Of a stretch of 64,000 nucleotides of DNA, positions 3,724 to 39,778 are shown piece by piece (within the stretch, counting starts at the first letter, position 1; each line of letters opens with the position of its first letter). The translations under genes were made by a program, and so were the position numbers. The stretch comes from an uncultured Chlorobiaceae bacterium (GTDB lineage Bacteria > Bacteroidota > Chlorobiia > Chlorobiales > Chlorobiaceae), in contig CAIWUU010000058.1 in NCBI GenBank assembly GCA_903915955.1, positions 8,169-72,168 of the forward strand, in the 5' to 3' direction. The notes below the pieces were generated by a model. The model was given only the letters and a program-made list of their open reading frames with translations, did not search any database and was not told the origin of the DNA.

Positions 3724-3797
3724 TCGGCGTAGCGGGATTCGAACCCACGACCCCTTCCACCCCAAGGAAGTGCGCTACCAGGCTGCGCTATACGCCG
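3724..3797 (-). tRNA. tRNA-Pro (anticodon GGG)
   Basis: The reverse complement folds by hand into a 74-nt cloverleaf: acceptor CGGCGTA/TACGCCG, D arm GCGC-AGCCTGGTA-GCGC, anticodon stem CTTCC/GGAAG with loop TTGGGGT, and T arm GTGGG-TTCGAAT-CCCGC. CCA is not encoded. Confidence 0.9.
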
Positions 3798-19173: not shown

Positions 19174-19698
19174 ATGATGCACAAGGTATTCATTGGGATA
19201 GGATCCAATATCGGGAATCGCATCCACCATCTTCAGGAAGCCGTTGATAAGCTCATGAAGCTTGATGACACATCGGTGTGCGGGGTATCATCCATCTATA
19301 TGACTGAGCCAATTGGTGAAACTGAACAGAACCGTTTTTATAATGGTGTTATTCTGCTTGAAACACTCCTTCCTCCTGAAGAGCTCCGACTGAAGTGTAA
19401 AACGATCGAACATGATCTTGGACGACCTGACGGCTATCCCCGGTGGAATGCCAGGGTGATCGACCTCGATATTCTGCTCTATGACGACCTCTGCCTGCGC
19501 ACTGAAACTCTCTCAATACCACACGCTGAACTGCAGCACAGAAAATTCGTCCTTATCCCGCTGCTTGATATTGCCAATCCTCTGCATCCAGAAACAGGAC
19601 AGAATATCCGTCAACTGCTGGAGTGCTGCGAAGATCAGTCAGTATTGATAAGAACAAAGGAAAATATCACACTAAAAAAAAGACGGAATGCAGATTAA
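19174..19698 (+). CDS. folK: 2-amino-4-hydroxy-6-hydroxymethyldihydropteridine diphosphokinase
   Basis: 174 aa with the HPPK motifs IGIGSNIGN, RVIDLDILLY and PHAELQHRKFVLIPL. Confidence 0.9.
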   Translation: MMHKVFIGIGSNIGNRIHHLQEAVDKLMKLDDTSVCGVSSIYMTEPIGETEQNRFYNGVILLETLLPPEELRLKCKTIEHDLGRPDGYPRWNARVIDLDILLYDDLCLRTETLSIPHAELQHRKFVLIPLLDIANPLHPETGQNIRQLLECCEDQSVLIRTKENITLKKRRNAD

Positions 19699-19749
19699 TG
19701 CACTCCGTCCTATACCTGCGAGGTTATAAGAAAAAAACGATGAAATCAC

Positions 19750-20904
19750 TCAATTGGCAAAGGTGATATTAAGGTTTCCTTCGTCAAAATCTGCGCCCTC
19801 AGTCTTCCGCCCCACAAGGACATTCGGCAGAATAATACTCTTGCGAAAATTGTTGATATCCACAAGTAACTCATCGCCCTTGATATTCACATTAAGCTTC
19901 TTGACCTCAACATTCGGCAGGTAAAGACTCAGCACATATTTCCCGTTGATTTTTTCAAGGCGCTGGGTTTTCTCGCTGGTGTAGAGAATTTCCGACGGGT
20001 TTTTATCGCCAAACATCTCCTTACTCAGCTCATAAAGCCTGTCGGTATTGATAATCTCTGCCGTAGACTGCTTCACCTTAAAAATGGGGACAGGATAGAA
20101 ACAGTTGTCAATCACCTTGAGATATTTGCTTTGAATATCAATAAGACTCTGCAGATAACTATCGGAGGAACTTGGAGGAAGAATCTTGTTGACAATAGCA
20201 GCATCAAGCTTGTAGCCAAAGAGGTTGAGATAGGTCTGTACCCGCAAGGCCTCTTTTATAACCATATTTTCCGGATTCAGGACAACCCTGAAGGTGGTTA
20301 TCGATTTATCCTGAAGCATGGCATGAAGCTCTTTCATGTGACTGTTCACCTCCGGCATGAGCTTGAAGATATTTTTCTTCGGCATAAACTTGTTCAGAAG
20401 AGGTGCTGCAAAACCTATCGCTTTTGAGTGCCATCCACCGATCTTGTCAGCATACCATCCGTAAGATTCAGGCATTCCAAGCAAACGCATCGTCTCACCT
20501 GTTGGAGCGGCATCAACAACAACAACATCATAATTGCCTGACTTGGCAGCCTTCCAGATATAGCGAAGACTGATCATCTCCTCCATTCCGGGCATAATAG
20601 CCAGCTCTTCAGCAACAACTTCATCAGCGCCATCATGCATCAAGATCGATGAAAAATAGGAGTAGAGCTCCGTCCAGTTCTCCCTGATCTCCGCAAGAAC
20701 ATTCACTTCCATGGCAAAAAGATTCTTTTCAACTTCCACAGGCGTAGAAGAAAGTTCAGCATTCAAGGCATCGGCAAGACTGTGCGCTACATCCGTACTC
20801 ATAATCAAAACCCGTTGCCCTCTTCGGGCAATTGCTGTAGCAGACGAAGCTGAAACGGTAGTTTTACCTACCCCTCCTTTACCCAGGTAAAGAATAATTC
20901 TCAT
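19750..20904 (-). CDS. Get3/ArsA-family ATPase (single ATPase domain) with C-terminal HSP20-like domain, paralog 1
   Basis: It has the deviant Walker A GKGGVGKT and the switch II motif [14 protein letters not shown]. The C-terminal ~90 aa form a beta-rich alpha-crystallin-like tail ([28 protein letters not shown]..). Confidence 0.85.
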
Positions 20905-20951
20905 GTTGATAATAAAACTATTGAGTAAACTTGATCTTGACTGAACGCTGG

Positions 20952-22433
20952 TTATCGACGAGGTGCATCCTGGTTATCGTCACCATCTTCTGACTGCGCC
21001 GCCGAAACACCCGCATCTTGTGAATGAGCACTCTCCTCGGGATCCGATTTGATCATAATTTTTTTTCTTGGCGCACCTCCTCCAGCACGCGGTTCCATAG
21101 CCTCCAAACCACTCTCTGAAAAGTCATCCATACTCATCATATTTTTCACCAGAGCAGAAACCTCGTCATCAGAAGTTTGAATTGAAATGCTTTTGCGTGC
21201 AGGAATATTGGACTCTTGAAGGTCATCTACCGGTAAAATCATCTTCGAGGAGGCCTCGGAGCTCCTCTTTTTTTCAAAACCTCGATCCGTGCTACTGAAA
21301 CAATCATCGTTCTGCGTCGCATCATCATCACAGTTTATCTTGATTTTCTTTTTTCCAGAAAAGTCATCATCATCACTGAAATCCCGCTGACTGGATTGCG
21401 AAGGGTCCGTTCTTGATTCTGAATTTCCAGTCTTTGCTGCTGACCTTTGCCGCCGCCTCTTTTGATTTTCGCCAAAACTGTTAGAGAGACGCAGCAGTTT
21501 ACCCACAGAGCCGATAACACCATCATTTCTGACGGCGGTTTTAACAATATTAATGACAAATCGCTCAGCTTGCGGATTATCTGCTATGCTGTTGAGCAGC
21601 TCATTGAGCGCTGAGAGCATACCCGGAACATGTTGAAGGTCACTCTTGATCTGATCACGAATCTTGAAAGGCGCATCTCCAATCATATCCTTTATGGATT
21701 CAGCAACCCGTTTCAATGCAGCTGGATCCGTGGGAAGAAGGTTTTCAATTCCCCGCAATGCATCGGCAGGAGAAAACCCTTCCGGTTTCTGCTCTCCGCC
21801 CTGTTGACGGGGCCGTTCGTCAGATGGCGAATAGCCAAGACTCGCCTTGTATTGCTCAAGAAGATCCTGACCATAACCTATATTGCTCTCCTGCTGAGAA
21901 TGAGCTGGGGCATCAAATTGAATAGGAAAAGATTGTGGCGCACAAACACTCCGCGAAGCCTGTAAAATAAGCAGAGAGACCTGATCAGGAAGATTCTTGC
22001 GGTAATTAAGACCGAGGTTCTCTTCAATAAGAGACTCAACAAGTGTCTGGAGCCTGGTAATCAATTCAGCTTCATGTAACTCAACCATGTCAAAAATCAC
22101 ATAAACAGGCTCTTTCTCTTCACGACGCACTTTGATATTCAGCGTTGCGAAATCATGATCTTTATTGCGGCTGTTAACAGAGACAGCACCAAGATTAAAT
22201 CTGTCGAGATAATCTTTATTCGACCCTCTAGCCCACAGGTAAACTGCCTTGTCGGTATAAATGAGATAATCCTGAAAGGCAATATTCCCGACACGCTCCT
22301 GATGCGACTCATAAAACACTCCTTCAAAAAATGCAATCGGATTCTCTCCGGCACTCATGAGGCCCTTCTGAAAAAATTCATTCACATCACCCTGTTCGGT
22401 CTGCCCCGAAACGTACAACGATACATTAACCAT
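20952..22433 (-). CDS. hypothetical protein: globular N-terminal (PH/GRAM-like?) domain plus long acidic Ser/Asp-rich disordered C-terminus
   Basis: 493-aa ORF with no competing frame and no motif I recognise. The C-terminal third is low complexity ([25 protein letters not shown].., ..SEDGDDNQD). Confidence 0.65.
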
Positions 22434-22555
22434 TGACCATACCTGTTCAGCTTAACACTTTTCAAAAGCTCGAAGCCAAATCTATGAAATTTTTACAATA
22501 AACAGAAATTACTCGCTTACCCGGGCAATATCAACCCTTGATTGATCGTTTTAAC

Positions 22556-22597
22556 AAAAAAAAAGGCAGTGAAAGCCGTTAAAGCTTTTCACTGCCC
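22556..22597 (-). terminator. rho-independent terminator of csmA
   Basis: On the minus strand, ggcagtgaaa/tttcactgcc forms a 10-bp stem followed by a 9-nt T-run. It lies 25 nt downstream of the csmA stop. Confidence 0.85.
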
Positions 22598-22621
22598 ATG
22601 AAAAGAGCGTCATAAATACGC

Positions 22622-22864
22622 TTATTTCGCGAACTTTGATTCTACAGCCTTGGTTGGGACAGCATAACCTGTCACCTCAGGTGAAGAACCACGAAGGGCT
22701 GTGCCCCCGCCCATGCTGCCGTAAGCATTGCGATTGATTCTCATTGTACCTTTGCCGAGAGAATCAAAAAGCATTCCGACAGTCTCCCAGTGCCCTTCAA
22801 CCATCACTTCAAAAATGCGACCAGTTGCGGCCAGGATATCGGTAAATACACCTCCACCACTCAT
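22622..22864 (-). CDS. csmA: chlorosome baseplate protein CsmA (precursor)
   Basis: The 80-aa product [48 protein letters not shown]...VESKFAK matches the CsmA sequence I remember from Chlorobiaceae almost residue for residue. Confidence 0.95.
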
Positions 22865-23009
22865 AAGTCCCCCTTGGAATTTAAATTATTGGAAAGTTTA
22901 AAATTTCAGAACAGTCAACCTTTTTCTAATCTACAGTAATTAACCAAAAAAACCAAAAAAAAAATTTCTCTTTTGAACGGAGCACCCTCCGACAACAGAG
23001 TGGGCTCTT

Positions 23010-23429
23010 TTATTTTCTTAACTGTCCCTTCTGAAAGGAACCCGCAAAATTCTTAACTACTTCAGAAGCAGAAACACCAGCGTCACCAACAGCAGTCGCA
23101 GCATTTCCTGTAGCATTTTCAACAGTTTCCACAGCAGTTGCATACAACTCGTTAGCTGTTCTTGATGCATCCTTGACAGTAATGGCAACCCTGTCAATAG
23201 TTTCTCCCACAACCCCGCCTGTATTGCCAAGCAGATTTCCGATACCAGTTGCATCAATAACAGCGCCAACGGTTCCTGTTACTGTATCAACAAGATTACC
23301 TGCCAGATTAAGACCACCCACGACAGCACTTTGGCCAGTCAAAAGAACACTTTCAGCAAGAAACGTAAGGCGATCGGTAAATTCAAGCTCTTTGAAATCC
23401 TTACGCAGTTTCTGGTACGATTCCGACAT
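23010..23429 (-). CDS. csmC: chlorosome envelope protein, CsmC/CsmD family
   Basis: 139 aa made of Gly/Ala/Thr/Val-rich amphipathic repeats, preceded by a strong SD (agggaggaag). It sits directly upstream of csmA, as in the known csmCA operon. Confidence 0.8.
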
Positions 23430-23556
23430 ATCTTCCTCCCTTGATAATGAGGCTTCCCGAAGGACACCTCTTGTTATAGTTTATATACTTAAGAGACCAA
23501 CTTCCCAAAATTTAAACATAAATATCAATCAAAACAAATTCACTCTCCCAAGCCCA

Positions 23557-24792
23557 CTACCCTCTGTCATACTCCTTATGCATCTTTTGCTCCTGTTTCG
23601 AGCGGCTATGATTCTGACGATCAAGATCAAAAGGAATATGCAACCATTTATCCTTGAAGACAGCATTTCCCGGTTCAAGACCTGTCAGGCTGATTGGAAG
23701 GGTAATAATCTTGCGCTGATTACCGATCTGTACAAACAACTCATCGCCGGTTACCCATACATCAATATCAACAGGGTTGGCAAACATAAGTTTTAACTGC
23801 ACCTCGTAGACATCCTTGTTCCTCACAAACTTGATCGGTGGCTCGTCATACATCATGTCCGACGGATCAGTGTCACCATACATATCTTTGGCGAAAAGCT
23901 CAAGTGACTGAAGACCGACAATCTCCTGCTCATACATCCTCAGTTTTTTTACCGGAAGAGGTGAAAAACCCTCCTCTATCTCCCCGAGGTACTTCTGCTG
24001 GATAGCTTTCCAGTTCTCAAGATATCCACTGTCCTCTTTGGTATCAAGCAGCTTGTTCACAAGCACCATATCAACCTTGAAACCATACAGATTCAAATAC
24101 GTCAGGGCACGCATGGTCTCCTTGATTGACATTTTCTCCGCATTCATGACCAGTCTGACGGTTGATTTTTTGTTGTCTGTCAAAATATCACGAATATCCT
24201 CAAGTTCATCAAAAACCTGGTCAACCGACTCAATAGCATCTGCAGGAGGAACAAAAAAGGCAATTTTGTCAGACATTTTTGAGAGTGGCTTACTCAGCGG
24301 TTTGATGAGGTATTTATTAACGTTTTTGATCGCTTTCATGCCCCACGCAAGGGTATCGGGAAGGGAAAGGAGACGAAGGGTCTCTCCGGTCGGGGCTGTA
24401 TCAAGCACAAGAACATCATAAAGGCCGGAAGCTTTATAGCGCTTTATCCTCAAAAGAGAAAAAAGCTCTTCCATGCCAGGAAGAATGGTCATCTCATCTG
24501 CCATGACACCGGAAACACCCTGAGCCATAAAAATCTTCGTGTAGTACTTCTGCACAGATTGCCAGTTCTGCTTGAGATCAACATAAGGGTTGACCTCAAT
24601 AGCATGAAGATTATCCTTTATTTTTGTTGGTTCAGCGCCAAGAGGGAGGTTAAACGAATCTGATAGACTATGTGCGGGATCTGTTGAAAGGACAAGAGTA
24701 CGATAGCCAAGCTGTGACAAACGAACAGCAGTAGCGGCTGATACACTGGTTTTGCCTACCCCGCCTTTACCTGTAAAAGTTAAAATACGCAT
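23557..24792 (-). CDS. Get3/ArsA-family ATPase with C-terminal HSP20-like domain, paralog 2
   Basis: It has GKGGVGKT, the switch II motif VLDTAPTGETLRLL, and a tail YEVQLKLMFANPVDIDVWVTGDELFVQI... The start is set at MRILTFTGKGG (ATG 24792). Confidence 0.85.
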   Translation of the reverse strand: MRILTFTGKGGVGKTSVSAATAVRLSQLGYRTLVLSTDPAHSLSDSFNLPLGAEPTKIKDNLHAIEVNPYVDLKQNWQSVQKYYTKIFMAQGVSGVMADEMTILPGMEELFSLLRIKRYKASGLYDVLVLDTAPTGETLRLLSLPDTLAWGMKAIKNVNKYLIKPLSKPLSKMSDKIAFFVPPADAIESVDQVFDELEDIRDILTDNKKSTVRLVMNAEKMSIKETMRALTYLNLYGFKVDMVLVNKLLDTKEDSGYLENWKAIQQKYLGEIEEGFSPLPVKKLRMYEQEIVGLQSLELFAKDMYGDTDPSDMMYDEPPIKFVRNKDVYEVQLKLMFANPVDIDVWVTGDELFVQIGNQRKIITLPISLTGLEPGNAVFKDKWLHIPFDLDRQNHSRSKQEQKMHKEYDRG

Positions 24793-32934: not shown

Positions 32935-35900
32935 ATGCACGATAAAATCAGAATTGCCGCTATTGTCGGTATGGAACAATGCAATCAGCGTGTTTGGCGC
33001 GAAGTAACCTCCAAAATTGCTGATCATGCCGAATTGACTCAGTGGACCGATCAAGACCTCGAGCATCAGAACCCTGAAGCCGCAGAAGCTATCCACAATG
33101 CCGACTGTATTTTTACCACCCTGATTCAATTCAAGGGACAGGCTGACTGGCTGCAGGAACAAGTCAATCAATCAAAAGTTAAAGTTGTATTTGCCTACGA
33201 GTCAATGCCTGAAGTGATGCAGATGACTAAAATTGGCAATTATGTGGTCTCGGGTGATGGAAGTGGAATGCCTGATATCGTCAAGAAAGTTGCGAAGATG
33301 CTGGTAAAGGGACGCGATGAGGATGCTCTTTATGGTTACATGAAGCTGCTTAAAATCATGCGCACCATGCTCCCGCTGATACCGAAAAAGGCCAAAGATT
33401 TCAAGAACTGGATGCAGGTCTATACCTACTGGATGAACCCCACCACCGACAATCTGGCTTCGATGTTTAACTACATCATGGCAGAATACTTCGAGGTTGG
33501 CATCAAGGTTGAAAAAGTACAGGAGGTACCAACCATGGGTTTCTATCATCCTGATGCACCAGAATACCTTAAAGATCTGCACCATTACGAAAAATGGCTT
33601 CACAAACGCGACCGAAACGCAACAAAAAAACGCAATATCGGCCTACTTTTCTTCCGCAAGCATCTCTTGCAGGAGAAAGAATATATTGATAATACAATCC
33701 GTGCCATTGAGGCCAAGGGGCTCAATCCCCTGCCGGTTTTTGTGATGGGTGTTGAGGGTCACGTTGCCGCCAGGGAGTGGTTTACGCACAACAACATCGA
33801 TATGCTGGTCAACATGATGGGCTTTGGCTTTGTTGGCGGCCCCGCAGGCGCAACCACACCAGGCGCATCATCAGCCGCACGTGAGGAGATTCTCGGAAAA
33901 ATCAATGCCCCTTATGTTGTTTCACAACCACTCTTTATTCAGGATTTCACCTCATGGAAGTCGCAGGGCGTTATCCCTCTCCAGTCTGCCATGACCTACT
34001 CGCTGCCTGAAATGGACGGCGCTGTCTGCCCGGTTGTGCTCGGAGCCATCAAGGATGGACGCCTGCAGACGGTTCCTGACCGCCTCGAAAGGCTTGCCGG
34101 ACTTGCCAAAAAATTCTCAGAGCTGCGCCAGATTCCAAATAAAGAAAAGAAGGTTGCTCTGGTGGTTTACGACTATCCGCCCGGCATGGGCAAAAAGGCC
34201 AGCGCTGCCCTGCTGGATGTCCCCAAAAGTATTTATAACATCCTGCTTTCACTCCGCACTGAAGGGTATGATATCGGTGAGCTGCCGGAATCACCGGAAG
34301 CTCTGCTTGCCATGCTCGACAAAGCAACCGATTACGAAATCCAGGCACACGAGCAGGATTGCTTTGCCATCGACCGAGAACAATTCAACACTATCACCAG
34401 CAGCAGGGAGCGGGAGCGCATTGAGGGACGCTGGAGCGGCTTCCCTGGTGAAATTGCACCAATCAAGCCAGACAAGCTCTTTATCGGTGGTATCACCTTC
34501 GGCAATGTCTTTATCGGTGTTCAGCCACGCCTTGGCATCCAGGGCGATCCGATGCGTCTGCTGTTCGACAAGGAGAATACACCCCACCATCAGTATATCG
34601 CCTTCTATCGCTGGATCAGCCGCATTTTCCAGGCTAACGCCATGGTACACGTCGGTATGCACGGTACCGTAGAGTGGATGCCCGGGCTACAGCTTGGTGT
34701 TACCGGTGACTGCTGGTCAGACATTCTGCTTGGTGAAGTGCCGCATTTCTATATCTATCCTATCAATAACCCGAGCGAGGCCAATATTGCCAAACGTCGT
34801 GGTTATGCCACCATGATTTCACACAACATCCCGCCGCTGGCACGTGCTGGCCTCTACAAGGAGCTGCCTGCCTTCAAGGAGATGCTGAATGATTACCGCG
34901 AACGAGGACTGCAAACTACTGCGGATGCTGAAACAGAAGAGGTCATTATCACCAAGGCACAGCAGCTCAACCTGACAGATGATTGCCCTCGGGTTGAAGG
35001 AGAGGAGTTCCAGAACTATATCAGCCGTCTTTACACCTATATGATGGAGCTTGAGGGGCGCTTGATCTCGAACTCGCTGCACATCTTTGGAGAGACACCG
35101 AAGCTTGAGACCCAGGTAACCACCATTACCGAATACCTGAAGGTACGCGGCAATGAAAAATCCCTCCCATCAGTGATCATGCAGGCCATTGGTGAAGACA
35201 GAACGTATGGTGACTACGCATCGCTGGCTACACGTGCCCGAAAAGGCGAACAACAGGCGATGACCGCTCGCGAAACGGTAGATGGTCACACCAAAGAGTT
35301 TATTGAGCAGACAATTTTCGGGAAGAGCAACCCGACAAGCCTCTTTAACAAACTGACCAATGGCGCTAAAGTATCGCAGGATATGGTTGAGGCGATCAAT
35401 GGAGCACTGCAGGATGGCCTTGCCCTGAAGCTGGCCCTTGAGGACAACCACAATGAGATGAAAGGATTCCTGAGAGCCCTGTGTGGTGAATATATCCCGT
35501 CAGGTCCAGGCGGCGATCTGGTGCGTGACGGCGCTGGTATTCTGCCAACAGGACGCAACATTCACGCCATTGATCCATGGCGCATTCCTTCAGAACTTGC
35601 CTTCAAACGCGGCAAGCAGATTGCTGAAACAATCCTCAACCGCCACGTTGAGGAAAATAACGGCGAGTATCCTGAAACCATTGCCCAGGTGCTCTGGGGA
35701 CTTGATACCATCAAGAGCAAGGGTGAAGCCGTTGCCGTCATCATTCACCTCATGGGCGCTGAACCGGCTTATGATGGACAGGGCAAAATCAGCCACTACC
35801 GTCTGGTACCACTTGAAAAGCTTGGCCGTCCAAGAATTGATGTGCTGATCCAGATCAGCTCGATTTTCCGCGACACCTTTGGCGTCCTTGTCGACCATCT

Positions 35901-36738
35901 CGACAAACTGGTCAAGGATGCTGCGAAAGCCATTGAGCCGCATGAGATGAATCATATAAAAAAACATGTCGATGCCGCCCTGAAAGAGGGCAAGGATTTT
36001 GAGAGCGCGACATCGCGCCTCTTCACCCAGGCGCCCGGTGCTTATGGCTCACAGGTCGAAGAGCTAGTCGAAGATTCAGCATGGGAGTCAGAAGAGGATC
36101 TTGACAATATGTTTATCAAACGAACCGGTTTCGCTTATGGCGGCAACCGCTACGGCGACCAGCAGACTGATATCCTTAAAGGGCTTCTCAGCACCGTCGA
36201 TCGCGTTGTGCAGCAGGTTGACTCGGCTGAGTTCGGCATTACCGACATTGATCGCTACTTCTCCTCATCGGGAGCGCTCCAGCTTTCCGCTCGCCGCCGC
36301 AACCCGAAAGGTGACAACGTCAAACTGAATTATGTCGAGACCTTTACTGCGGATGTTAAGATTGACGACGCCGACAAGGCATTGAAGGTGGAGTTCCGCA
36401 GCAAACTCCTTAACCCGAAATGGTTCGAGACCATGCTCGACCAGGGGCACAGCGGCGCAGCCGAAATCAGCAACCGCTTTACCTATATGCTCGGATGGGA
36501 TGCCGTCACCAAAGGTGTCGACGACTGGGTGTACAAAGAGGCTGCTGAAACTTATGCCATGGATCCAAACATGCGCGAGCGACTTATGAAAGTCAATCCG
36601 AAAGCCTTCAAAAACATTGTAGGCCGTATGCTCGAAGCAAGTGGACGCGGCATGTGGAGCGCAGACCCTGACATGATAGAAAAACTGCAGGAGATCTACT
36701 CCGACCTTGAAGACCGCCTTGAGGGAATTGAGGTTTAA
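32935..36738 (+). CDS. bchH: magnesium chelatase large (H) subunit, BchH/BchS/BchT family
   Basis: 1267 aa of CobN/Mg-chelatase family sequence throughout (N-terminal KIRIAAIVGMEQ...). It is followed by bchM and bchE. I cannot assign which of the three GSB paralogs it is. Confidence 0.92.
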   Translation: MHDKIRIAAIVGMEQCNQRVWREVTSKIADHAELTQWTDQDLEHQNPEAAEAIHNADCIFTTLIQFKGQADWLQEQVNQSKVKVVFAYESMPEVMQMTKIGNYVVSGDGSGMPDIVKKVAKMLVKGRDEDALYGYMKLLKIMRTMLPLIPKKAKDFKNWMQVYTYWMNPTTDNLASMFNYIMAEYFEVGIKVEKVQEVPTMGFYHPDAPEYLKDLHHYEKWLHKRDRNATKKRNIGLLFFRKHLLQEKEYIDNTIRAIEAKGLNPLPVFVMGVEGHVAAREWFTHNNIDMLVNMMGFGFVGGPAGATTPGASSAAREEILGKINAPYVVSQPLFIQDFTSWKSQGVIPLQSAMTYSLPEMDGAVCPVVLGAIKDGRLQTVPDRLERLAGLAKKFSELRQIPNKEKKVALVVYDYPPGMGKKASAALLDVPKSIYNILLSLRTEGYDIGELPESPEALLAMLDKATDYEIQAHEQDCFAIDREQFNTITSSRERERIEGRWSGFPGEIAPIKPDKLFIGGITFGNVFIGVQPRLGIQGDPMRLLFDKENTPHHQYIAFYRWISRIFQANAMVHVGMHGTVEWMPGLQLGVTGDCWSDILLGEVPHFYIYPINNPSEANIAKRRGYATMISHNIPPLARAGLYKELPAFKEMLNDYRERGLQTTADAETEEVIITKAQQLNLTDDCPRVEGEEFQNYISRLYTYMMELEGRLISNSLHIFGETPKLETQVTTITEYLKVRGNEKSLPSVIMQAIGEDRTYGDYASLATRARKGEQQAMTARETVDGHTKEFIEQTIFGKSNPTSLFNKLTNGAKVSQDMVEAINGALQDGLALKLALEDNHNEMKGFLRALCGEYIPSGPGGDLVRDGAGILPTGRNIHAIDPWRIPSELAFKRGKQIAETILNRHVEENNGEYPETIAQVLWGLDTIKSKGEAVAVIIHLMGAEPAYDGQGKISHYRLVPLEKLGRPRIDVLIQISSIFRDTFGVLVDHLDKLVKDAAKAIEPHEMNHIKKHVDAALKEGKDFESATSRLFTQAPGAYGSQVEELVEDSAWESEEDLDNMFIKRTGFAYGGNRYGDQQTDILKGLLSTVDRVVQQVDSAEFGITDIDRYFSSSGALQLSARRRNPKGDNVKLNYVETFTADVKIDDADKALKVEFRSKLLNPKWFETMLDQGHSGAAEISNRFTYMLGWDAVTKGVDDWVYKEAAETYAMDPNMRERLMKVNPKAFKNIVGRMLEASGRGMWSADPDMIEKLQEIYSDLEDRLEGIEV

Positions 36739-38137: not shown

Positions 38138-39778
38138 ATGAAAATACTGATGGTTCAACCAAATTATCATTCAGGTGGAGCCGAAATTGCCGGTAACTGG
38201 ACACCAAGCTGGGTCGCTTATATTGGTGGTGCCCTGAAAAAGGCAGGATTTGATCAGGTGCGTTTTGTTGACGCTATGGCCGAAGATATTCCTGACGACC
38301 AGGTCGAGGAGATCATCCGCAAAAACAATCCGGATGTGGTGATGGTAACCAATATCACCCCGTCAATCTTCAAGGCGCAGGCCATCATGAAGATCGCCAA
38401 AAAGGTAAACCCAAAGATCAAAACGATTATGGGTGGAATTCACTCAACCTTCATGTACCCGCAGGTGCTGAGTGAAGCTCCCGAAACCGATTACGTTGTC
38501 CGTGGTGAAGGTGAAGAGGTAACTGTTAACCTCATCAGAGAGATTGCCGCCGGAACCGACCTGAAAAACAGAGGTGAAATCACCGGTATCGCCTACATTG
38601 ATAACGACGGCAAGGTGTTCGCCACCGCAGCACATCCTGTTATTGAAGATCTTGATACACTCTCCCCCGACTGGAGCCTTTACGACTGGGATAAATATAT
38701 TTACACCCCTCTGAACTGCCGTCTTGCTGTTCCAAACTTTGCCAGAGGCTGTCCATTTACCTGCACCTTCTGCTCACAATGGCAGTTCTGGCGTCGCTAC
38801 CGTGCTCGCAGTCCCAAGCTTTTCGTCGATGAAATTGAGGTACTGGTCAAACAGTACAAAGTGGGCTTTTTCATCCTCGCTGATGAGGAGCCAACCATCA
38901 ACAAGCAGAAGTTTGTTTCGCTCTGTCAGGAGCTTATCGACCGCAAACTTGATGTTACCTGGGGTATCAACACCCGAGTGACTGACATCATGCGCGACGC
39001 TGATCTGCTGCCCTTCTTCCGCAAAGCTGGCCTTGTGCACGTCTCGCTCGGTACAGAGGCTGCCAGCCAGATGAATCTGAACCGCTTCCGTAAAGAGACA
39101 ACTATTGAAGAGAACAAGCTTGCTATCAAGCTCTTGCAGAAAAACGGCATTGTCGCCGAAGCGCAGTTCGTTATGGGTCTCGAACACGAAACCCCTGAAA
39201 CGATTGAGGAGACCTACCAGCTCTGCAAAGACTGGGATCCAGATATGGCCAACTGGACAATTTACACCCCATGGCCCTTCTCCGATCTCTTCAAAGAGCT
39301 TGGCGACAGGGTGGAGGTGCGCGACTACTCCAAGTACAACTTTGTGACGCCGATTATCAAGCCGGATAATATGGAGCGTGAGGATGTACTCAAGCTTGTG
39401 CTGAAATCTTATGCACGCTTCTACGCCCGCAAAACCTTCTTTGGCTACCCATGGATCAAGGATCCCTATGTCCGCAAGTACATGCTTGGCTGTCTGAAAG
39501 CATTTGCACAGACCACCATTACCAAGCGCTTCTACGACATTGACCGCGTCAAAACCAAGAACCGCAAAATTGAGATTGACCTCGGCTTCGACAAGTCAAG
39601 AATTCTTACGCAGGACGAGGTGAAAAACCTTAAGGAGCTGCGTCCGGAAATGGTCGCCGACATGAGCTTCGGCTTGAAAGAGGCTGGTTACCAGCGCGAG
39701 CACGACGAGCACAACTGGGACGAGTTCGACGAGAGCACCATCAAGGATCGTAACTCTTCGACCGTGCGCAACTGCTGA
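38138..39778 (+). CDS. bchE: B12-binding radical SAM enzyme, anaerobic Mg-protoporphyrin IX monomethyl ester cyclase-like
   Basis: 546 aa with an N-terminal cobalamin-binding-type domain and a CxxxCxxC in ARGCPFTCTFC. Its length and position after bchM favour BchE over the shorter BchQ/BchR methyltransferases. Confidence 0.7.
   Translation: MKILMVQPNYHSGGAEIAGNWTPSWVAYIGGALKKAGFDQVRFVDAMAEDIPDDQVEEIIRKNNPDVVMVTNITPSIFKAQAIMKIAKKVNPKIKTIMGGIHSTFMYPQVLSEAPETDYVVRGEGEEVTVNLIREIAAGTDLKNRGEITGIAYIDNDGKVFATAAHPVIEDLDTLSPDWSLYDWDKYIYTPLNCRLAVPNFARGCPFTCTFCSQWQFWRRYRARSPKLFVDEIEVLVKQYKVGFFILADEEPTINKQKFVSLCQELIDRKLDVTWGINTRVTDIMRDADLLPFFRKAGLVHVSLGTEAASQMNLNRFRKETTIEENKLAIKLLQKNGIVAEAQFVMGLEHETPETIEETYQLCKDWDPDMANWTIYTPWPFSDLFKELGDRVEVRDYSKYNFVTPIIKPDNMEREDVLKLVLKSYARFYARKTFFGYPWIKDPYVRKYMLGCLKAFAQTTITKRFYDIDRVKTKNRKIEIDLGFDKSRILTQDEVKNLKELRPEMVADMSFGLKEAGYQREHDEHNWDEFDESTIKDRNSSTVRNC

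Follow-up and report, generated by a model that had tools for sequence, protein, structure and literature searches.

Why do two ATPases that carry the database label of arsenite-transporting ATPases lie on either side of the chlorosome genes csmC and csmA? The question is raised by a five-gene locus in the stretch of DNA analysed here (64,000 nucleotides (nt) from an uncultured Chlorobiaceae bacterium, hereafter the window), in which genes for two Get3/ArsA-type ATPases, csmC, csmA and an unannotated protein follow one another on the minus strand. Comparative genomics revealed that the two ATPases belong to the Get3d family, and that with csmA and the unannotated protein they make up a module whose gene content and common direction are conserved in two phyla, Chlorobi and Chloroflexi. 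The locus very probably has some functional tie to the chlorosome. That the module serves the biogenesis of CsmA and the baseplate, with the Get3d ATPases chaperoning and targeting CsmA, is a reading to which we give roughly even weight. The features of the locus are as follows, from its 5′ to its 3′ end, with lengths in amino acids (aa).

23557..24792, minus strand: ArsA_up, the upstream Get3d-type ATPase, 411 aa from its ATG, a Get3/ArsA-fold nucleoside triphosphatase (NTPase) with a C-terminal alpha-crystallin/HSP20-like domain
23010..23429, minus strand: csmC, chlorosome envelope protein C, 139 aa (PF11098, E 1.5e-62)
22622..22864, minus strand: csmA, precursor of the baseplate protein that binds bacteriochlorophyll (BChl) a, 80 aa (PF02043, E 6.5e-34)
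20952..22433, minus strand: unannotated protein of 493 aa, with no match in Pfam or NCBIfam
19750..20904, minus strand: ArsA_dn, the downstream Get3d-type ATPase, 384 aa (PF02374 and PF17886)
19680..19711, minus strand: terminator-like hairpin immediately 3′ of ArsA_dn, with a stem of 13 bp and then a T run

The preliminary description of this DNA had read five co-directional minus-strand genes from 24792 to 19750 in the order Get3-type ATPase, csmC, csmA, 493-aa protein and second ATPase, and the list of open reading frames (ORFs) confirmed both the order and the positions. Counted from ArsA_up, the successive gaps are 127, 145, 188 and 47 nt, and the hairpin is likely the 3′ end of the transcription unit. 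A longer ORF of ArsA_up, starting from TTG, extends to 24834; the orthologues of this protein are 408-411 aa long.

A scan of Chlorobiaceae with one genome per species yielded 80 loci, and the five-gene order was intact in every locus long enough to contain it (~50 loci), as re-confirmed with called genes. Across these loci ArsA_up shares 84-100% and ArsA_dn 83-98% identity with the window proteins, the ArsA_up of locus L001 (contig CAJEXL010000010.1) being 100% identical. By itself the order in Chlorobiaceae is weak evidence, because the wider neighbourhood is also syntenic: one flank holds an epimerase gene, holA, ssb and a pyrK-like gene, the other folK, folB, nadC, acpS and tig. In the window, the neighbours of the five genes are folK, folB, nadC, the pyrK-like gene, ssb and holA, and the genes that flank the run on both sides (among them the folK-like gene at 19174-19698) lie on the opposite strand.

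Sequence searches started from the window proteins largely stayed within the family. A word-seeded homologue search with the window CsmA returned Chlorobiaceae only (33 clusters), and that with ArsA_up only orthologues at least 88% identical, with no other phylum. A HMMER profile of CsmA run against 1.8 billion representatives reached CsmE and one divergent CsmA (P0154), not the CsmA of Chloroflexus, and a search with a mixed alignment of CsmA, CsmE and Chloroflexus sequences was dominated by Chlorobiaceae CsmE. P0154 is 52% identical to the window CsmA and lies on a divergent, Chlorobi-like contig of 4.5 kilobases (kb), L081, which carries an ArsA_ATPase gene with the HSP20 domain (71% identical to ArsA_up), csmC (51%), a 68-aa ORF and csmA before the contig ends. 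Thus L081 agrees with all Chlorobiaceae loci in having csmC between the ATPase gene and csmA. The 68-aa ORF between csmC and csmA in L081 (3577-3783) has a CsmC-like N-terminus (FKxxxxxxxxAF) and no Pfam match.

The loci of Chloroflexi were obtained by scanning metagenome contigs with the CsmA of Chloroflexus aurantiacus, a query that proved 100% identical to environmental contigs. The scan returned 28 loci from Chloroflexus and relatives, with CsmA 76-100% identical to the query, and tblastn, Pfam and ORF clustering revealed one common order, on one strand and with the genes nearly abutting: ArsA1, csmA, a 375-aa protein, a 461-aa protein, ArsA2 and ArsA3. The components were recovered in 27, 27, 20, 19 and 18 of the 28 loci, every shortfall being a short contig. 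The cluster contains no csmC in any of these loci, so csmC lies outside the cross-phylum core and CsmA is the conserved client candidate. The conserved core is composed of Get3d, csmA, one or two proteins of the family to which the 493-aa protein belongs, and Get3d; it is centred on csmA, not on csmC. In locus L087, ArsA2 and ArsA3 are exact matches of C. aurantiacus J-10-fl ABY33383.1 and ABY33384.1. In the published map of this strain csmA is Caur_0126, bchK, csmM, csmN and csmP are Caur_0138-0142, and the genes between are drawn as uncharacterised (PMC3150298). Judging by position, the genes that flank csmA there are probably Caur_0125 and Caur_0127-0130.

Found in all long-enough Chlorobiaceae loci and in a second phylum, the arrangement is not due to chance. 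It is not peculiar to this strain either: the order that the preliminary description proposed to follow across chlorosome producers is complete in Chlorobiaceae, is kept as Get3d-csmC-csmA in L081 and as the core in Chloroflexi, and fails only for csmC in the last. Between Chlorobi and Chloroflexi, CsmA is ~30% and the 493-aa protein family ~20% identical, and nothing else around the module is common to both. This depth of divergence argues for maintenance of the gene order.

The protein encoded between csmA and ArsA_dn is a “hypothetical protein” in every source. A conserved N-domain (residues 1-160) is followed by helical regions in the middle, likewise conserved (residues 181-200 and 221-320), and by a charged tail (window 20952-21470), the length of which is very variable across loci L001-L079. 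Its orthologues are 459-777 aa long, with N-domains 85-96% identical in Chlorobiaceae. The 375-aa and 461-aa proteins of Chloroflexi also have no Pfam match, and we compared their families with 40 non-redundant Chlorobiaceae orthologues (of 52 collected) by profile-profile alignment in hhalign. The 493-aa family matched the 461-aa family with a probability of 97.1% (E 5e-11 over 373 columns) and the 375-aa family with 73.7% (E 3e-5 over 320 columns), and the two Chloroflexi families matched each other with 98.8% (E 1e-16 over 333 columns). These profile matches indicate that the 493-aa protein is homologous to both proteins that follow csmA in Chloroflexi and is a member of the conserved module. 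Eleven N-domain residues are invariant in Chlorobi and Chloroflexi (E19, E30, G38, R47, D55, W67, A68, R69, F79, D92 and H93), and we refer to the family as WAR-domain proteins. Among the loci examined, it was encountered only adjoining csmA. Of 12 family members, 5 match bPH_3 (PF14470) below the threshold, with a best E of 0.0013; the window protein is not one of them, and the two full-length Chloroflexi proteins score 13-15 bits against a cutoff of 23. A PH-like fold of the N-domain is therefore possible. Comparison of the N-domain profile with PDB sequences gave no match, and a single-sequence AlphaFold2 run on residues 1-330 gave an unusable model (predicted local distance difference test score (pLDDT) of 36).

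Both ATPases match the Pfam families PF02374 (ArsA_ATPase; E 2e-116 for ArsA_up and 1.6e-82 for ArsA_dn) and, over its full length, PF17886 (ArsA_HSP20; E 5.9e-20 and 2.6e-19), and they score 281 and 230 bits with TIGR00345, the NCBIfam model of the Get3/TRC40/ArsA subfamily, against a cutoff of 135. The motifs GKGGVGKT (the deviant Walker A), D[PV]AHS and D[TA]APTGET[LM]RLL are present in both, and the motif set of ArsA_up includes DTAPTGETLRLL. These domain matches and motifs bear out the preliminary description, which had taken both for single-domain Get3-type proteins with an HSP20-like domain. A Get3/ArsA fold with a C-terminal alpha-crystallin domain is the architecture that defines Get3d, and the proteins of green bacteria, both sulfur and nonsulfur, that have this domain were explicitly classed as Get3d (Barlow et al. 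2023, PMC10248533). On sequence grounds, both ATPases are thus members of the published Get3d family; as a family they are not new, because Get3d has already been described (PMC10248533). The database label “arsenite-transporting ATPase” is misleading for both.

Among PDB sequences, the two ATPases match archaeal and eukaryotic Get3 as well as Get3d of Nostoc (3igf/8egk) and Arabidopsis (8elf). The characterised Get3d proteins (AtGet3d, At1g26090, PDB 8ELF; NosGet3d, Nostoc All4481, PDB 8EGK/3IGF) share with them the fold, the deviant Walker A motif, the alpha-crystallin domain and the lack of a CxxC motif. There are also differences. The window ATPases match NF050088 (NosAFP) over its full length but score 147 bits against an equivalog cutoff of 325, they keep canonical switch I and switch II motifs, unlike NosGet3d, and archaeal Get3 (3zq6, E 1e-51) is closer to them in sequence than NosGet3d is (E 2e-26). 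For ArsA_dn, AlphaFold2 run on a shallow alignment gave a model with a mean pLDDT of 54, with the client-binding helical region as its low-confidence part and a C-terminal seven-strand β-sandwich at residues 314-382 (pLDDT 64-81). Structural similarity search with this model using Foldseek placed NosGet3d (8egk/3igf) at the top, with E 8e-20 over ~400 columns and a TM-score of ~0.43, the model being poor; the outcome agrees with the Get3d assignment and says no more.

The two ATPases are 38% identical to each other. ArsA_up shares 49-51% identity with Chloroflexi ArsA1, groups with it in the tree and occupies the same site upstream of csmA (upstream of csmC-csmA in Chlorobi), while ArsA_dn, Chloroflexi ArsA2 and a third paralogue of Chlorobaculum form separate deep branches. 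ArsA3 (L087 14120-15223; 18 Chloroflexi loci) keeps both domains and has lost the P-loop and switch motifs, HHQLQQS replacing GKGGVGK, and is probably a pseudo-ATPase subunit or regulator. Up to five Get3d copies per genome have been counted, in one Chlorobium genome (PMC10248533). The constraint on the proteins of the locus was compared using Chlorobaculum sp. 24CR (L062) as the reference, with the following identities to the window proteins.

ArsA_up: 89%
ArsA_dn: 88%
CsmA: 94%
CsmC: 78%
493-aa protein: 50%
tig, holA, pyrK-like and nadC products: 52-59%

Identities of this order indicate that the ATPases are under strong purifying selection, with a constraint on par with that of CsmA.

CsmA is the only chlorosome protein reported to be common to all chlorosome-bearing phyla, and the biogenesis of the chlorosome is described as unresolved (PMC9316378). 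The window CsmA matches PF02043 over residues 4-79 and PDB 2k37 with E 4e-32, and its GHW motif, which contains the histidine that binds BChl a, is invariant. The structures of mature CsmA (2k37/5lcb) align to residues 1-60 of the product. The solved mature protein has 59 residues and the gene encodes 80, consistent with the loss of a C-terminal propeptide known for this protein, here residues ~61-80 (window 22622-22684). In the alignment of Chlorobi CsmA, CsmE and Chloroflexi CsmA, the mature part keeps G, F, GHW and NAY, and the very end of the propeptide keeps K..S[KR]F, which suggests a conserved signal for recognition, handling or processing. In CsmC, PF11098 spans residues 1-137 of 139. 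No transmembrane (TM) segment was found in either protein, the 19-residue Kyte-Doolittle maxima being 1.18 for CsmA and 1.21 for CsmC; the hydropathy peak of CsmA is N-terminal (residues 4-22), and its C-terminus is the hydrophilic propeptide.

The chamber of Get3d is closed and hydrophobic, with room for a helix of ~22 residues, and Get3d of Arabidopsis and Nostoc has ATPase activity and captures TM helices in vitro (PMC10248533). We propose that the two Get3d paralogues of the module, in the form of homodimers or a heterodimer, would work as ATP-gated holdases, the enclosed chamber shielding the N-terminal hydrophobic helix of newly made pre-CsmA and, in Chlorobi, perhaps also the amphipathic CsmC. 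The conserved propeptide of CsmA would serve as the handling or processing signal. The WAR-domain protein, with its maybe PH-like N-domain, helical middle and disordered charged tail, may be the adaptor or receptor at the interface between cytoplasmic membrane and chlorosome, where CsmA would be set free, receive its BChl a and join the baseplate. We infer the identity of the client, the heterodimer, the adaptor role and the ATP-dependent release. The most specific form of the proposal, in which the Get3d paralogues, possibly as a heterodimer, and the WAR-domain protein constitute a dedicated ATP-driven route that places the non-tail-anchored pre-CsmA into a lipid-monolayer organelle, is tentative and on balance doubtful. 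Of the idea of a chlorosome biogenesis module put forward in the preliminary description, the module itself is supported by comparative genomics and an arsenic function is effectively excluded (see below); chaperoning, targeting and the heterodimer keep the standing of proposals. No literature linking these ATPases to chlorosomes was found in open-access full text and bioRxiv, and paywalled reviews or chapters may mention the arrangement.

Several observations weigh against a dedicated role in CsmA biogenesis. The analogy with tail-anchored proteins, with which the preliminary description had motivated such a role, does not hold literally: CsmA and CsmC are not tail-anchored clients, because both are TM-free and the hydrophobic helix of CsmA is N-terminal (PDB 2k37), which sets them apart from all Get3 clients demonstrated so far. 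Cyanobacteria and plants have Get3d as well (PMC10248533), and since these organisms have no chlorosomes, the function of the family is not chlorosome-specific. A paralogue adjacent to bchQ-bchU in Chlorobium, and bchU and bchK near the Chloroflexi cluster, suit a role in pigment handling equally well. The third Get3d paralogue, which lies near csmE in Chlorobaculum parvum, has no such position in Pelodictyon luteolum or Prosthecochloris GSB1. Finally, chlorosome genes are believed to have passed between Chlorobi and Chloroflexi (PMC3150298), and part of the common order may reflect descent from one transferred island. The common order arose once in evolution, and what carries the argument is that it was kept.

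The main rival to CsmA chaperoning is a pigment or lipid carrier, the other rivals being less likely. The chamber of Get3d would move BChl c or a, carotenoids, quinones or glycolipids to the nascent chlorosome or to CsmA, and the linkage to csmA would reflect the joint assembly of pigment and protein. The Chlorobium clade has a second Get3d copy, sharing ~85-88% identity with ArsA_up, which in ~22 loci with differing outer flanks always directly precedes a B12/radical-SAM gene and bchU, the former bearing the Joint Genome Institute (JGI) name bacteriochlorophyllide (BChlide) d C-8(2)-methyltransferase (BchQ) and the latter scoring 485 bits with TIGR02716 against a cutoff of 276 (PDB 1x19, E 7e-158). 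In Chloroflexi, a bchU-like gene lies ~5 kb past ArsA3, the third ATPase gene, beyond alpha/beta-hydrolase and unknown genes, and is followed by bchK, csmM and csmN. Moreover, AtGet3d co-purifies with small molecules of ~750 Da, and both crystal structures show unexplained density in the chamber (PMC10248533). These points are countered by others. The authors of the Get3d study deem primary lipid binding unlikely, the head-group contacts not being conserved (PMC10248533). The bchU-linked ATPase is a lineage-specific duplication, because the tree nests it within the Chlorobium ArsA_up clade, and it thus attests no ancient independent association with pigment genes. The tightest and most widely kept neighbour is csmA, a protein gene and no pigment enzyme. 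Pigment or lipid as the cargo is, in our view, unlikely.

Among the loci of the bchU-linked copy (L076 6188-11827, L038, L047, L049-L053, L056, L057, L060, L063-L065, L068, L069, L071-L074 and L078), L076 has a BchQ-like gene on each side of the ATPase gene. In L080 (3824-5047, 5089-6195 and 6711 to the contig end), two copies flank bchU with no bchQ-like gene between, an arrangement that may stem from local rearrangement or from faulty assembly. The interval from ArsA3 to bchU (L087 15211-19283, likewise in the orthologous loci) holds a conserved run of genes, three of the alpha/beta-hydrolase fold and two unknown (293 and 238 aa), the 293-aa protein showing a very weak match to the metallopeptidase family DUF6782 (E 0.16); they are candidates for CsmA propeptide processing or for a pigment esterase.

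The third Get3d paralogue (Chlorobaculum parvum, CP001099, L082 13992-15176) shares 42% identity with ArsA_up and clusters with C. tepidum AAM73287.1; it is encoded on the strand opposite to csmE, at a distance of 3.7 kb. A link between Get3d and csmE was dropped as evidence, the proximity in Chlorobaculum parvum not being kept in the two other genera named above. In Pelodictyon luteolum, L083 (9350-12779) holds an island of csmB, csmE, a B12/radical-SAM gene and a UbiA-family (BchK/G-like) gene, and in Prosthecochloris GSB1, L085 (2373-5150) holds one of a bchF-like gene, a B12/radical-SAM gene and csmB.

It is less likely still that the ATPases are housekeeping Get3 homologues engaged in generic targeting of tail-anchored proteins, with the adjacency to csmA being historical, the outcome of a transferred island or of co-expression with photosynthesis genes. 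Binding of a TM helix by Get3d in vitro fits such a role, as does the synteny of the whole Chlorobiaceae neighbourhood, in view of which the order within the family is uninformative alone. Against it, the order ATPase-csmA-WAR-ATPase survives in two phyla at 20-50% protein identity with nothing else in common, the several paralogues per genome leave room for specialisation, and the module holds an otherwise unknown family that was encountered only beside csmA.

A role in positioning or attachment, in which a deviant-Walker-A ATPase and a disordered partner would space, segregate or dock chlorosomes in the manner of McdA/McdB, is very unlikely. Get3/ArsA and ParA/MinD do have the deviant Walker A fold in common, the 493-aa partner has a long, variable and highly charged tail, and the genes are linked to a structural gene of the organelle. 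However, the models of ParA/MinD and of most related P-loop families cover only the first 40-70 residues of the ATPases. The spans of Pfam CbiA and AAA_31 reach residue 139-219, yet all of these matches score far under that of ArsA_ATPase over its full length, and with the ParA/MinD models of NCBIfam the scores stay far under the cutoffs. The ATPases have also kept the alpha-crystallin domain and the helical, Get3-specific region for client binding. Moreover, chlorosomes are fixed to the membrane via the baseplate, and to our knowledge no nucleoid-based positioning of chlorosomes has been described. ParA-like positioning was rejected on these family-model tests of both ATPases.

Resistance to arsenite or another anion is effectively excluded, its support being automatic annotations and a Pfam family name and the evidence against it the single-domain build, equivalog scores far under cutoff, the scarcity of cysteines, the absence of ars genes nearby and the chlorosome genes as conserved neighbours. 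ArsA of E. coli R773 (PDB 1F48) shares the fold superfamily and PF02374, but there two halves, A1 and A2, are fused into a pseudodimer of ~580 aa, which carries metalloid-binding cysteines and is encoded in an ars operon; none of these traits is shared by the window ATPases. An ArsA pump was rejected on TIGR04291, the ArsA equivalog (119 bits for ArsA_up and 86 for ArsA_dn against a cutoff of 650), on NF041417 (131 and 101 against 800) and on the absence of the tandem A1-A2 duplication, ArsA_up (411 aa) and ArsA_dn (384 aa) having one NTPase domain each. E. coli ArsA has three metalloid-binding cysteines; there is no such set here, because ArsA_up has 0 cysteines and ArsA_dn 1, and CxxC is absent from both. 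In three genomes, one of them Pelodictyon phaeoclathratiforme BU-1, the orthologous regions were free of matches to the Pfam families of arsB, acr3, arsC, arsR and arsD as far as 10 kb out on each side. The statement of the preliminary description that neither ATPase is a duplicated ArsA and that no ars genes lie nearby is borne out by TIGR04291, the cysteine count and the 10-kb flanks.

Compared to known systems, the logic proposed here for CsmA resembles that of GET/TRC40, in which a homologous ATPase with a helical, methionine-rich client subdomain operates by ATP-gated capture of a helix followed by delivery to a receptor. In GET/TRC40, however, the clients are tail-anchored into a bilayer, whereas the candidates here are TM-free and bound for a lipid monolayer and baseplate, and the CxxC of cytosolic Get3 has no counterpart in the window ATPases. 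No recognisable homologues of Get1/2 (WRB/CAML) or Get4/5 were found, the sole co-conserved partner being the WAR-domain protein with its weak bPH_3 matches. The mycobacterial BagA/BagB (Rv3679/Rv3680, PDB 6BS3), an adjacent or near-adjacent pair of Get3-like paralogues, are a precedent for a bacterial heterodimer, and by analogy ArsA_up and ArsA_dn might pair likewise. The window ATPases match the corresponding NCBIfam models and 6bs3 weakly (46-57 bits against cutoffs of 400-521), and BagAB differs in that it lacks an alpha-crystallin domain and is not linked to any photosynthetic organelle. In chloroplasts, cpSRP43/cpSRP54 provide dedicated chaperoning and targeting of the abundant, hydrophobic light-harvesting chlorophyll-binding protein (LHCP), which is kept soluble until it is assembled with pigment; the families are unrelated to the Get3d module, and the likeness is one of function only.

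Farther out in the window lie a 1267-aa subunit of Mg-chelatase H type (32935-36738; CobN-Mg_chel, BchH/S/T-like) and a 546-aa B12-binding radical-SAM protein (38138-39778; BchE-like). Their genes are 8-15 kb from the csm genes, and the region is generally rich in photosynthesis genes. The sole Rfam match in the 64-kb window is one tRNA gene (3724-3797, minus strand). In Pelodictyon phaeoclathratiforme-like genomes (L115-L117, 16102-16510), a small phage-type ORF with a YopX domain lies between folB and nadC, unlike in the window, where this interval has no ORF of at least 50 aa.

The open questions of the chlorosome field include the route of CsmA to the baseplate, the packing of pigment and the choice between budding and aggregation models (PMC9316378). 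Get3d, for its part, is structurally characterised and present from green bacteria to chloroplasts, with no known client, and the paper that described it does not contain the word “chlorosome” and proposes neither a client nor a genomic context (PMC10248533). The family itself was already known; the csmA context, the candidate client, the WAR-domain partner and the module common with Chloroflexi are added by the present analysis. We know of no assembly factor of the chlorosome. By tying Get3d paralogues and a new protein family to csmA in two phyla, the module supplies a hypothesis for both fields and a concrete candidate for the machinery that builds the light-harvesting organelle of these bacteria. 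If CsmA is indeed the client, the module would be the first known chlorosome assembly machinery and CsmA the first defined physiological client of any Get3d, and the ancestral job of Get3d in phototrophs, plant chloroplasts included, would be the assembly of pigment-binding antennae and not generic insertion of tail-anchored proteins.

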